Assembly (NCBI GenBank): GCA_046759445.1
Contig: JBHICG010000006.1
Coordinates: 36,945 to 100,944 of the forward strand
Origin: Candidatus Scalinduaceae bacterium
Lineage (GTDB): Bacteria; Planctomycetota; Brocadiia; Brocadiales; Scalinduaceae
DNA length: 64,000 nucleotides
Direction: 5' to 3'
Part shown: in pieces, positions 60,001-63,000 of the stretch
Numbering within the stretch: the first letter of the stretch is position 1
Layout: each line of letters opens with the position of its first letter
Position numbers: made by a program

Positions 60001-63000
60001 CACATTCTCTTCGCCTGCTTTTACTTGTTTTTCACCTGTCCCCACGGTTACTAGTTTAATGGGTGGCGCTGAAGCTGCGCCAAGCTTGGCTTTTGCTTCT
60101 TCGCTTACGTCCGGGCAATCTTTCAGCTCAGCTTTCTTTTGTGCCAACTGCATTGCAAATGCCAAGCATGTTGGCCTACCGCATTTTTTGCAGTTTGTTT
60201 TTGGGAGAAGTTTAAAGATCTCAAGGCCTGTCAGTGCCATATATTAATCATTACTGTGAAATGTATATACTAATAACTTATTTAATATCATCTAGTGTCT
60301 TAACAATTTTATTTAACAATCCGTATTTAACTCCCTCTTCGGCAGACATCCAATAATTTCTCTTAGTATCGTTTTCAACCTTTTCAACCTTCTGACCTGT
60401 TTCTACAGCTATTAAATTATTAATCTTCTCACGACATTTAAGTATCTCACTTGCTTCTATTTGGATATCAGATGCTGTGCCATGCACTCCTGTGGATGGT
60501 TGATGAATAAGTATTCGAGAATTTTCCAGACTGAATCTATTCTCCTTTTTTGCACCGATAAGGATTATAACGGCTGCACTGGCAGCAACACCAGCACAAA
60601 TGGCCTTAACTTTTGGCTTAACAAATTTCATCATGTCGTATATGGCAAATCCTGCATCCGCATCTCCGCCAGGAGAATTGATAAAGATTTTGATATCTTC
60701 CTTAGGACTTTCTTGTTCAAGTATTAAGAGTTGAGCAATCACTCTTTGAGCCAATTGCTTGGTGATTACGTCCGCAATTACTATCGTTCGGCTCTTCATG
60801 AGCTTTTTTGATAGGAAGTCAAAACGTTCGTAACCCTTTTCTTCTTCCTCTTCTTGTATATACATTTAATATTCCTTTCTTTCCTCAGAACATTGGTTCC
60901 ATCGAGAGTGCAGGATGATTTACCTTTTGCAAATACTCTAAGACTTCTTCTTCTGTTTGAGCTATTGTTTCGTCAGCAATCTTATTAAGGAAATCGTCTA
61001 ACCCTGCTTCTTTTGCAGCATCGCTGATTGCATCTCCTATCTCCTCTTTAAGTTGTTTTGGCATCCACACCAGCCTGGCAAGACCGCCATCGCCTGATAT
61101 GAATTTATTGCTGCTCATATAAAATTTACTGTGTCCTACAAACCCTGGTGTTTGTATACCGCCACCTACGGTTCCTGCAAGTGTAGAAAACTTCATTCCA
61201 CACGGAGTCATTCCTGTGTAATCTCTATCTACGGTCATTATTCCATTTGTCATTGGCAACATCGCTGATATACATTCGAAGCAGCCGCAACTTGTCATCG
61301 GATTGTTAACCATGCTGTACATACTTACCTGTTCAAATTCTCTGTTAGAGTTTTGATACAGGAAGTTGTTTGTCCCTTCCCAAAGTCCTAATTTCTCATC
61401 TATTAATTTGCCTTTTTCAATCGGTTGGTTAGGGCCTGTTGGTGTTATTTCATAGCCTGCCTTTCCGTCCAACCAGCTTACTGCGCCACATAACCCCGAG
61501 CGTTCTGGCGATATTATGCATACGTGACTGGGCGCAAAGCTCTGGCATAATGTACAACTGTAAAATAAGTTTACGGATGCATCCGTCATTCCAAGAGCTC
61601 TTTCATCGCGTTCAGTAAATGCAGCCTTAACTTCTTCCAATTTGCTCTCAACTTCTTCTTTCTTTGTATATAACTTAACCTGGACCTTATCTAATATTGC
61701 GCCGTACTCTTCATGATATTTAGCGTGAATTATCTTTCCTATGTGTAATATCTTAAATCCGCTTTTAAATGCGTCTTTGCTGATTCGGTGCCTGATGATG
61801 TCTCTCTGACCCATATGAAAAAACCCTTGTGCTTCTCCAAGAAAATGATGTGTTCTTCGCTCAAAGATTGGCTCGAAATCTTTCTGCATCTTGCGCCCCG
61901 ATACCTCAACATAAATTCCTAACGACTTACCGGGGCCTTGTTCCATTTCATCTATTTCTGGCCCTATCACGTCTATTTTAGCATCTTCAATTTCTTCATT
62001 TTCTCTCATCACAACGTATTCAAATGCTGGTACATGTGGACCTCCCACCTCGATGTGCATGTCATCCTTTCTTATTCTTTCACCTTCAAAAGCAGGACCA
62101 TATGATACAGGTATGTCTACCTTAGCAGCAGCCACCTTAAGCCCCCTCACTTCTATACATTTTTCTACCATCTTGTCATGCGGTACAAGCGGTACCACAT
62201 GCTCGTAGGTACAAACACCTGTAGGTAATATCTTAGGTATATCCGTATCTGCAATTGTTGGGAAACCATAGTTGATGGCACCTGCTGCATTGGCATACTT
62301 TTCATCATCTACTTCTCCCAACGCCATTACGAATGCAAAAATTCTGTTTTTGTTGTAAATTAGATTTTTTGTAAAATCTGCTGGCGCTATGCCACCAAAA
62401 GATAAGGCGGCTTTGTTCGCAAAGCCGAGAGAATAAATAGTGGCAGTTATACTCTTCCCGAATGGCACTAACCTTGTCTCCCATCCAAGCTGTACTCCCT
62501 CTTCATCCAGTTGTTCGGCAAATGATTTACCGTTAGTGTTTGCAGAAATAAAAATGTATAAGTTTTTTTCCTGCAACTCCCGTGCTATTTTTACGGCAAT
62601 CTCGTTGGTGGGTGCAGCTCCTACGACTGCTGCAAATCCGGGTGCTGTACCATCAACGAACTCTATGCCCCGCTCACGCAATATAACATCATTTGCAGCA
62701 CCTAACCATATGCCATCTACAGGATTTGGGCCAATCAGGTATTTACATGCTTCTATTACCTCTTCTGCATAAAGGGTTGCCATACCGGCATCAAGCGCCC
62801 AGCCAAGATAAGGTAGGTATACCTTTTCTTCGGGTATTGGTGGCAACAAAGCTCTTGCATGCCCAAGTGCTTCTTCGCAATCCTCCAGAGTCTTCACTTC
62901 AAGAGCTGTTGCTGAGTAAATTATTGGTAGATAATAACCAGTGTTTGGAAACTCAACCTTGGCATCTTTCCCCTTTGAGTCTATTGCTTCTCTTAATTTT

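Follow-up and report, generated by a model that had tools for sequence, protein, structure and literature searches.

In anammox bacteria, the central carbon-fixing enzyme is CODH/ACS, which has fragile Ni-Fe-S and corrinoid components. In the genome of a Candidatus Scalinduaceae bacterium, the operon that encodes this enzyme also carries a gene for a ClpP protease subunit, located between acsB and acsC. This arrangement raises the question of what a ClpP does at such a site, i.e., whether it serves CODH/ACS, works with the ClpP encoded elsewhere in the genome, acts on its own or occupies a position that has no meaning. Here, we address this question for a window of 64,000 nucleotides, by which we mean the whole stretch of DNA that was analyzed; all features described below lie on its minus strand. 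The operon comprises acsA (CODH), of which the 3' part is present (63150..64000, cut by the contig end; PF03063 at 9.1e-51), acsB (acetyl-CoA synthase, 726 residues, 60885..63065; PF19436 at 2.8e-121, PF03598 and PF18537), the clpP paralogue (60278..60865), acsC (large subunit of the corrinoid Fe-S protein, 445 residues, 58903..60240; PF03599 at 4.1e-111 and PF04060), the gene for RACo, the reductive activator of corrinoid protein (56810..58762; PF14574, PF17651, PF17650 and PF00111), a gene for a cooC/acsF-type P-loop NTPase (56034..56807; PF01656 and PF13614), acsD (small subunit of the corrinoid Fe-S protein, 55052..56011; PF03599 at 1.2e-37) and the methyltransferase gene acsE (54251..55036; PF00809). 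The contig end coincides with the end of the 64-kb window.

The clpP paralogue is an intact open reading frame (ORF) of 195 residues that belongs to the CLP_protease family PF00574 (residues 14−189, 232.7 bits where the cut-off is 20.2, E 3.6e-69), and the AF2 model of its product (pLDDT 91) gives Foldseek TM scores of 0.85−0.89 to solved ClpPs at a probability of 1.00. Profile and predicted fold together show the gene to encode a second ClpP, i.e., a predicted ClpP-fold serine peptidase. Exactly two ClpP genes are found in the source genome, on different contigs. The other one, referred to as the housekeeping clpP, follows the trigger factor gene, and its product is 40% identical to the ACS-linked ClpP; ClpX is also encoded in this genome. 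The housekeeping protein passes the canonical ClpP equivalog NF001368 (322.4 bits), whereas the ACS-linked ClpP falls below the cut-offs of both this profile (220.7 bits, cut-off 249) and TIGR00493 (205.5 bits, cut-off 308.6). It exceeds the cut-off of NCBIfam NF009205 (251.2 bits, cut-off 228), but we dropped this profile as a name for the clade because canonical ClpPs, including that of E. coli, score higher on it. NF011089 fits a sister clade with Asp in the triad (281−305 bits); the anammox ACS-linked ClpP remains below its cut-off (224.3 bits, cut-off 251). Assignment to the ClpP-related phage prohead proteases (NF045542) was rejected at 91.2 bits, under a cut-off of 120.

The gene sits 19 nt downstream of acsB and 37 nt upstream of acsC. 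The first of these spacers (60866..60884) holds a purine-rich ribosome-binding stretch, the second (60241..60277) has no terminator-like site, and a promoter and terminator scan of the minus strand, in which the overall number of sites was at chance level, returned nothing promoter- or terminator-like in either of them. The acsB−clpP junction is bridged by RNA-library contigs with one and three mismatches; matching contigs came from two metatranscriptome runs of a single study, which may hold DNA, and one probable DNA run. Among the matches listed, no piece bridges the clpP−acsC junction. The data thus show in part that clpP is transcribed together with acsB and acsC.

The first-pass annotation of this DNA described an order-wide second ClpP fixed between acsB and acsC, a description that was confirmed. 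At all 36 loci with a copy of 64−92% identity, the gene is flanked by acsB and/or acsC (both in 32 loci; the other four are truncated where a contig or locus stops), and the paralogue is present in 82 of the 92 Brocadiales genomes, in all five families, at 64−100% identity. Among 16 further Brocadiales loci, clpP lies inside the acs operon in 15; at the loci of more distant relatives, acs flanks were found in none of 44. The comparison outside the Brocadiales was made with a sample from within the phylum Planctomycetota. Because acsB abuts acsC in 11 of the 14 acs loci of this sample and clpP is found in none of the 14, the insertion of clpP between the two genes is specific to the order Brocadiales. 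The position of a partner-ring-like ClpP (see below) between acsB and acsC is new: literature searches on anammox with ClpP and acetyl-CoA synthase, and on anammox with Clp protease and Wood-Ljungdahl, found nothing, a search for kustd1544/kustd1543 found no mention, and papers pairing anammox with ClpP, among the matches listed, have titles and abstracts on other subjects.

Ten of the 92 Brocadiales genomes are paralogue-negative. Of these, G068, G069, G017 and G052 also gave no acsB match with the query used, in G036 the contig ends inside acsB, and G007, G015, G056 and G063 (58−79% complete) were left out of the locus check. In the species representative G028, codons 1 to ~137 of clpP are gone and the remaining acs operon is intact. 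This deletion is natural and real-looking, and clpP is dispensable at least in G028, which represents the only loss among the resolved loci. Both the paralogue and a housekeeping ClpP were found in 78 of the 82 paralogue-bearing genomes; in the other four (G004, G005, G022 and G078) either no tig was found (three genomes) or tig lies right at the contig end (one genome), i.e., the tig−clpP region appears to be unassembled. Consequently, no case was seen among the Brocadiales genomes examined in which the ACS-linked copy is the sole ClpP.

One reading of the locus would be that the protein is a general second ClpP and that its place in the operon is meaningless, i.e., that an ancestral insertion was kept since its removal would disturb the operon. 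The deletion in G028 fits this reading, as do the occurrence of relatives at many unrelated loci and the observation that the acsB−clpP junction tolerates change, because a HicAB/DUF2442 cassette has been inserted there in locus L021. However, the position is retained over five families, even though the acs operon proteins have diverged to 57−75% identity, the clade-specific residues described below are fixed throughout the 37 copies and the gene was lost only once among resolved loci. Furthermore, the dN/dS value of the ACS-linked clpP (0.046) lies between those of acsB (0.040) and acsC (0.055), i.e., purifying selection acts strongly on the gene, much as on its neighbors, and the gene is no decaying passenger. 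We therefore consider a meaningless position to be very unlikely.

The same observations, i.e., retention at 36 of 36 loci and in 82 of 92 genomes, an order-specific insertion and selection as strong as that on acsB and acsC, would be expected for a protease dedicated to ACS which, alone or on the housekeeping ring, matures CODH/ACS or the corrinoid Fe-S protein or removes damaged forms of them. Two repair and maturation factors, RACo and CooC, are encoded in the operon as well, and ClpP would then be a third operon-encoded maintenance factor beside these two. On the other hand, gene order is the sole link to ACS, and relatives elsewhere are found in unrelated contexts, with acs flanks at none of 20 fetched and none of 44 related loci. 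There is also no sign of a processing site, because neither end of Brocadiales AcsB and AcsC is extended by a peptide that their non-anammox Planctomycetota counterparts lack, the C-termini being alike, and the acs operon of G028 is intact without clpP. Taken together, an ACS-dedicated protease is unlikely. Rather unlikely, too, is the more specific proposal that the Asn170/Lys168 isoform (see below) and the housekeeping ClpP would form a protease reserved for the metal-cluster proteins of the acetyl-CoA pathway, which it would mature or clear and which work beside reactive nitrogen intermediates in anammox cells. The first-pass annotation saw in the protein a ClpP-like subunit to which the Wood-Ljungdahl operon is home and which is dedicated to it; the conserved operon position stands, while the dedication exceeds the evidence.

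The residues of the active site were read from a MAFFT alignment with E. coli ClpP. Ser96 (codon AGT, 60578..60580) is aligned with S97 of the mature E. coli protein, His121 (CAT, 60503..60505) with H122 and Asn170 (AAT, 60356..60358), which replaces the triad Asp, with D171, in agreement with the Ser-His-Asn triad that had been proposed earlier. Ser and His are each found in 37 of 37 ACS-linked copies. The third position is Asn in all 37, none of which has the catalytic Asp that is found there in each of the 17 housekeeping copies from anammox bacteria, and the Asn is kept across synonymous codons (AAT in 24 copies, AAC in 13). The Asn170 column corresponds to the Asn of Listeria ClpP1 (4jcq/4ryf; the title of 4jcr reads "ClpP1 N165D mutant"). 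Listeria ClpP1, with the same Asn substitution, is an accepted ClpP. Two interpretations of this site were discarded: a ClpR-type non-catalytic paralogue, because Ser and His are present in all 37 copies, and an invention of Asn in anammox bacteria alone, because Asn is also found in relatives and in Listeria ClpP1.

A second substitution is found two residues upstream, where Lys168 (AAG, 60362..60364) occupies the alignment column of an acidic oligomerization-sensor residue. According to one report, the sensor residue pair stabilizes the ClpP tetradecamer (PMC9035409). The column holds Lys in 36 and Arg in one of the 37 ACS-linked copies, and Asp in 16 and Glu in one of the 17 housekeeping copies; the neighboring sensor Arg is retained. 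Neither Lys nor Arg is found at this column in any of the 55 other altered-N-terminus ClpPs (see below) of the tree set, and a clade-specific Lys at the predicted sensor position is new. Together with Lys168, the substrate-strand motif GGDADAGF, which is strictly conserved in the ACS-linked copies, sets the clade apart, a point in favor of a protease dedicated to ACS. The oxyanion-hole glycines and the sensor Arg are intact. We take the unfoldase-docking cleft to be lined by Y62, F82, I90, F112, L114 and L189 in E. coli numbering, and the putative cleft residues of the ACS-linked ClpP are mostly hydrophobic (F in place of Y62, F at F82, I at I90, F/V at F112, L at L114 and I/V at L189).

At the N-terminus, a canonical ClpP forms a hairpin that contributes to the axial gate and contacts the unfoldase. 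By reading of the ORF, the corresponding motif is replaced in the ACS-linked ClpP by an acidic, variable segment of 17 residues (60815..60865), which differs among the 37 aligned copies and in which the housekeeping motif is not conserved. The earlier claim that ~35 N-terminal residues are missing did not hold: the first ~17 residues are present but diverged, and the protein can be aligned to mature E. coli ClpP from residue 3 on. The housekeeping ORF is 28 residues longer, mostly because it extends upstream of the canonical N-terminus (~25 of the 28 residues; housekeeping residue 27 corresponds to residue 2 of solved ClpPs). The AF2 model of the ACS-linked ClpP has pLDDT values below 50 at residues 1−10, a helix at residues 5−24 and no N-terminal hairpin, while that of the housekeeping protein, used as a control, displays the hairpin as beta-strands 30−35 and 38−43. 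Both the alignment and the model thus predict that the ACS-linked ClpP is without the canonical N-terminal hairpin.

This feature is shared with a larger group. In a tree that did not include Listeria ClpP1 and Pseudomonas ClpP2 themselves, ClpPs with an altered N-terminus form a clade of 70 of the 89 rows (SH-aLRT 95), inside which the ACS-linked clade is nested (SH-aLRT 97). Such proteins occur in 85 of 378 sampled Planctomycetota genomes, away from acs genes; acs flanks were found at none of the 20 fetched loci of other Planctomycetota relatives, and 18 of these 20 copies have Asp in the triad. In all five Planctomycetota genomes that carry a relative and are closed or almost so, one canonical ClpP is accompanied by one altered ClpP. 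The order tig−clpP(Asn)−clpP(canonical) is found in two genomes, with clpX next in the single locus that reaches further. The first locus scan was enriched for Asn relatives, as one search pattern covered the Asn motif; an unbiased search of representatives gave Asn in 9 of 150. The free tree requires seven changes; across the family as a whole, starred branches make at least four of them unavoidable, and a tree in which the 28 altered-N-terminus Asn rows are constrained together was not rejected (AU p 0.117). Hence, neither of the atypical traits is particular to the operon copy: the altered N-terminus is common to the 70-row clade, and Asn recurs both in this clade and in Listeria ClpP1. As judged from bit scores, the nearest solved relatives of the altered-N-terminus clade are Listeria ClpP1 and Pseudomonas ClpP2: clade member L044 scores 223.6 bits with the former, 199.5 bits with the latter and at most 151.5 bits with canonical ClpPs.

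From the intact Ser, His, oxyanion-hole glycines and sensor Arg and the largely hydrophobic putative docking cleft, one may envisage a stand-alone peptidase, i.e., a heptamer or tetradecamer that self-assembles independently of the housekeeping ClpP and either degrades peptides as an ungated chamber or acts with an unfoldase by which the acidic N-terminus is recognized. A Ser-His-Pro ClpP1 of P. plecoglossicida is indeed described as a homo-tetradecamer with low activity (PMC12900304). However, both of the nearest characterized proteins are reported to be inactive alone (PMC9257651, PMC12451819), Asn170 and Lys168 should weaken the alignment of the triad and the ring−ring contacts, and no genome was seen in which the ACS-linked copy is the sole ClpP. 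A stand-alone enzyme is therefore distinctly unlikely.

Instead, we favor, at roughly an even chance and by analogy to Listeria ClpP1 and Pseudomonas ClpP2, a model in which the ACS-linked ClpP is an anammox partner-ring isoform for the housekeeping ClpP that is expressed with CODH/ACS. Alone, the protein would be a weakly active or inactive heptamer, as Asn170 and Lys168, with its reversed sensor charge, should disfavor a homo-tetradecamer. This heptamer would stack on a heptamer of the housekeeping protein, the sole other ClpP of the genome, and its triad would thereby be aligned; ClpX or another unfoldase would dock on the housekeeping ring and feed substrate. Co-transcription with acsB and acsC, shown in part as described above, would tie the ClpP dosage to the CODH/ACS operon, such that the Clp protease would change in output or in the pattern of its cleavages when the carbon-fixation machinery is made. 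The predicted fold, the Asn shared with Listeria ClpP1, the nesting in the altered-N-terminus clade, the co-occurrence with a canonical ClpP, the predicted lack of a hairpin, the sensor substitution, the purifying selection and the presence of ClpX in the genome speak for a partner ring. Several observations speak against it. Because the putative docking-cleft residues stay mostly hydrophobic, the ACS-linked ClpP might bind an unfoldase itself; the sensor Lys, for which there is no studied precedent, could weaken stacking with any partner; and by its own bit scores the anammox protein resembles the canonical Thermus ClpP (181.8 bits) at least as much as it does Listeria ClpP1 (178 bits) or Pseudomonas ClpP2 (148 bits). 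Finally, the two clpP genes lie on separate contigs, and G028 lives without most of the ACS-linked clpP.

An order-wide operon protease subunit offers a testable lead on protein quality control of the acetyl-CoA pathway. For research on ClpP, the known "partner-type" isoforms are joined by a large clade from the environment, and the natural variant with an Asn triad and a charge-reversed sensor could reveal what in the sequence encodes the pairing of rings. If the protein were dedicated to ACS, it would be the first protease isoform operon-coupled to a carbon-fixation enzyme complex; if its position in the operon were incidental, the system would be just another one with two ClpPs.

Among known systems, ClpR of cyanobacteria and plastids is likewise a diverged paralogue of ClpP and is known to function in mixed rings only. 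ClpR is devoid of catalytic residues, whereas the ACS-linked ClpP keeps Ser and His in every one of the 37 copies. With P. aeruginosa ClpP2 (PDB 7M1L, 9NDJ; TM 0.89 and 41% identity to the ACS-linked ClpP for 9ndj_T in Foldseek) it shares an altered N-terminus without hairpins, which in PaClpP2 forms helices (PMC12451819). According to that report, PaClpP2 shows no activity by itself and gains it only on ClpP1, with ClpX binding to ClpP1 only (PMC12451819). In PaClpP2, a C-terminal turn occludes the docking cleft, and its gene differs in being stationary-phase and biofilm-linked, outside any operon of the acs kind. A ClpP1 that combines a Ser-His-Pro triad with a truncated N-terminus is described to behave similarly to Listeria ClpP1 and PaClpP2 (PMC12900304). 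L. monocytogenes ClpP1 (PDB 4JCQ, 4RYF, 6SFX; TM 0.86 and 48% identity for 4RYF_A, a ClpP1/2 heterocomplex, in Foldseek) shares the Ser-His-Asn triad and, too, is the second ClpP of a genome that also encodes a canonical ClpP, but its sensor motif, DTDRN, keeps the acidic residue where the anammox clade has Lys (DTKRN). To our knowledge, its gene is not found in a metabolic operon. As described in one report, LmClpP1 (Ser98/His123/Asn172) is an inactive heptamer that does not bind an AAA+ partner and becomes active within the ClpP1(7)ClpP2(7) complex (PMC9257651). This heterocomplex has been seen for the Listeria protein, while the anammox protein is known from its sequence and a predicted model. 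The uncharacterized altered-N-terminus ClpPs of other Planctomycetota and Alphaproteobacteria share with the ACS-linked ClpP the clade, the acidic N-terminus, one canonical ClpP alongside, a Trp two residues past the triad position and an Ala after the catalytic Ser, but differ in being 43−56% identical, with Asp in the triad of 18 of the 20 fetched Planctomycetota copies, no Lys or Arg at the sensor and no acs neighbors.

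The second ClpP gene (60278..60865, minus strand) is an intact open reading frame of 195 aa, located between acsB and acsC as reported in the first-pass annotation. Residues 14-189 match the Pfam family CLP_protease in a profile search (E 3.6e-69), and the only NCBIfam model passed is the generic subfamily model NF009205 (251.2 bits, cut-off 228); the canonical NCBIfam ClpP models remain below cut-off. The gene is part of a minus-strand run composed of acsA (truncated by the contig end), acsB, clpP, acsC, RACo, cooC, acsD, acsE and, as its last member, a 4HBT-type thioesterase-family gene (window 53668-54087, minus strand). 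The spacers to acsB (19 nt, purine-rich ahead of the ATG) and acsC (37 nt) yielded no promoter-like or terminator-like sites in a scan that as a whole stayed at chance level. The genome harbors one other ClpP gene, i.e., the housekeeping copy found after the trigger factor gene (tig) on a different contig (40% identity to the ACS-linked copy), and a ClpX gene on a third contig. Selection acts on the ACS-linked gene: its median pairwise dN/dS (Nei-Gojobori, pairs with dS between 0.05 and 1.2) is 0.046 (82 pairs), and the values for acsB, acsC, RACo and cooC are 0.040 (41 pairs), 0.055 (67), 0.055 (52) and 0.051 (40), respectively. The gene is covered by contigs of two DNase-treated metatranscriptome runs from one study, and metatranscriptome contigs bridge the acsB-clpP junction (60800-61011, 1 mismatch; 60638-60986, 3 mismatches), which is weakly suggestive of co-transcription because such contigs are no proof of RNA origin.

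The position of the gene is fixed across the anammox families, as had also been proposed. At loci with 64-92% identity, acsB and/or acsC adjoin the gene in 36 of 36 (both in 32; four run into a contig or locus end), and acs flanks were found at none of 44 more distant ClpP loci. The paralogue is present in 82 of 92 Brocadiales genomes and in each of the five families (64-100% identity), and the housekeeping copies form a distinct band at 40-45%. Six of the ten genomes in which it is missing were examined: acsB is likewise missing with the query used in four, the contig ends at acsB in one, and one species representative (G028) carries a deletion. In G028 an estimated 0.8 kb is gone, comprising clpP codons 1 to ~137 together with the final acsB codons, which alters the last four AcsB residues. 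An in-frame C-terminal remnant of 58 aa (G028:C45; locus L103, 6599..6835) persists on a contig of 1.16 Mb; acsB and acsC on either side of it are intact, as is the remaining operon. Among 401 sampled Planctomycetota genomes, 50 from outside the Brocadiales have an AcsB, and clpP was present at none of the 14 loci returned from these (acsC directly follows acsB in 11; neither acsC nor clpP lies within 1.5 kb in three), in contrast to 15 of the 16 Brocadiales loci, the 16th of which stops 231 nt past acsB. The insertion of clpP between acsB and acsC is therefore specific to the order. In one Brocadiaceae MAG, acsB and the ACS-linked clpP are 1.1 kb apart, with a HicB/HicA toxin-antitoxin pair and a DUF2442 gene (Pfam) inserted in between (L021:4012-4869). 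Two contigs titled as Neomarinimicrobiota and Thermodesulfobacteriota MAGs (L014, L035) contain an anammox-type acs operon in full, and their AcsB proteins share 91% and 86% identity with that of the window; these are probably mis-binned Scalindua contigs, and such mis-binning could be the source of some earlier "non-Brocadiales" counts.

In an alignment of 37 ACS-linked copies, 17 anammox housekeeping copies and E. coli ClpP, Ser96, His121 and Asn170 align with mature E. coli S97, H122 and D171. The third triad position is Asn in 37/37 ACS-linked copies and Asp in 17/17 housekeeping copies, and since the Asn codon is mixed (AAT 24, AAC 13), the residue is maintained by selection. Among solved structures, Listeria monocytogenes ClpP1 ranks second (LmClpP1; 4jcq/4ryf, E 1.4e-51), with DTDRN opposite the DTKRN of the ACS-linked protein; the identity of these entries is confirmed by their titles in Foldseek ("ClpP1/2 heterocomplex from Listeria monocytogenes", "ClpP1 N165D mutant"). 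The earlier doubt about the identity of the catalytic Asp is thereby settled.

The N-terminus had been described as lacking about 35 residues and the axial gate; the loss of about 35 residues is not borne out. The ACS-linked ClpP is alignable to mature E. coli ClpP from residue 3 on, and it is the housekeeping ORF that extends ~25 residues before the canonical N-terminus (residue 2 of solved ClpPs corresponds to its residue 27). Where the housekeeping copy has its conserved motif, the ACS-linked copies have a variable acidic stretch (acidic fraction 0.29 versus 0.15 in canonical ClpPs). The AF2 model (pLDDT 91 overall, <50 for residues 1-10) predicts a single helix over residues 5-24 and no hairpin, whereas both hairpin strands (30-35 and 38-43) are predicted in the housekeeping control. 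The absence of a canonical gate is therefore upheld, but not a deletion of the segment. All 17 anammox housekeeping ORFs examined carry extra residues before the canonical start (~25, of low AF2 confidence, in the copy of this genome, L001:1477-2148), which may represent a propeptide or an over-called start.

An IQ-TREE phylogeny of 89 rows places the ACS-linked copies in a clade of their own (SH-aLRT 97), nested within a clade of 70 ClpPs with altered N-termini (SH-aLRT 95), with an Asp group as sister (SH-aLRT 89); a FastTree phylogeny of 225 rows is concordant. Asn requires seven changes on this tree, at least four forced by starred branches, yet the AU test does not reject grouping the 28 altered-N-terminus Asn rows as a single clade (p 0.117). 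Because one search pattern spanned the Asn motif, the locus scan was skewed toward Asn relatives; in an unbiased search of 1.84 billion representatives, Asn was found in 9 of the best 150. Common to the larger clade are a Trp two residues past the triad position (68/69 rows), in most cases Ala immediately following the catalytic Ser, and an acidic residue where E. coli has T71. Only the anammox clade combines Asn170 with Lys (36) or Arg (1) instead of the acidic residue at the oligomerization-sensor position (D 16, E 1 in anammox housekeeping copies; K or R in 0/55 other altered-N-terminus members of the tree set). The motif GGDADAGF is strictly conserved in the ACS-linked copies. Of 378 non-Brocadiales Planctomycetota sampled, 85 encode a relative at 43-55% identity. 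Among 20 fetched, 18 have Asp and two Asn, with no acs genes nearby in any. All five genomes with a relative that are closed or nearly so encode one canonical ClpP, one altered ClpP and no other. Three non-anammox loci have a SIR2-family gene immediately upstream of an Asn-type clpP with altered N-terminus (L048:3401-4270, L052:3986-4747, L078:4072-4863); this pairing may be conserved in Alphaproteobacteria-like genomes.

The first-pass annotation viewed the protein as a dedicated ACS subunit. The operon position stands and is the sole basis for this interpretation; AcsB and AcsC carry no Brocadiales-specific terminal peptide suggestive of processing, and we consider such dedication unlikely. 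The best-supported mechanism, to which we assign an even chance, is that of a partner ring for the housekeeping ClpP, produced along with CODH/ACS. The analysis establishes the family, fold, triad state and N-terminal divergence of the protein, its clade, its co-occurrence with a canonical ClpP, its operon position and the selection on it. The ACS-linked ClpP alone would form a heptamer that would stack onto the housekeeping ring, through which unfoldases would gain access. Counting against a partner ring, its own scores for LmClpP1 and Pseudomonas aeruginosa ClpP2 (PaClpP2) do not exceed that for Thermus ClpP, residues at the positions that we take to form the docking cleft are mostly still hydrophobic, the Lys sensor is without studied precedent, and G028 exists without the gene. 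In the literature searched (excluding subscription papers and supplements, e.g., anammox proteome tables), nothing was found linking anammox and ClpP to acetyl-CoA synthase, or anammox and Clp protease to the Wood-Ljungdahl pathway, nor any mention of kustd1544/kustd1543; among the matches listed for anammox and ClpP, none was related by title or abstract. The type of protein is already known; what is new is its order-wide fixation in the acs operon and the Asn-plus-Lys combination.

A clade member, at locus L044, scores 223.6 bits against LmClpP1 and 199.5 bits against PaClpP2, but at most 151.5 bits against canonical ClpPs, and the two are therefore probably the solved representatives of this kind. 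LmClpP1 (Ser98/His123/Asn172) is an inactive heptamer that does not bind an AAA+ partner and is activated in a 7+7 complex where ClpP2 templates its triad (PMC9257651). PaClpP2, with N-terminal helices that close the portal, shows no activity alone and is active solely on ClpP1, to which ClpX exclusively binds (PMC12451819). For a Ser-His-Pro ClpP1 whose N-terminus is truncated, the heterocomplex is likewise the more active form, with ClpX binding only the partner; the same paper terms Ser-His-Asn "rare" (PMC12900304). The sensor pair stabilizes the tetradecamer (PMC9035409). In the two non-anammox Planctomycetota whose fetched copy has Asn (L112 in G174 and L119 in G119), tig is followed in tandem by an Asn-type clpP with altered N-terminus and a canonical clpP (then clpX in L119; L112 ends before that point), an arrangement that resembles the two-ClpP operons of actinobacteria. 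The predicted structure of the ACS-linked ClpP resembles both solved proteins, with 48% identity and a TM score of 0.86 for LmClpP1, and 41% and 0.89 for PaClpP2.
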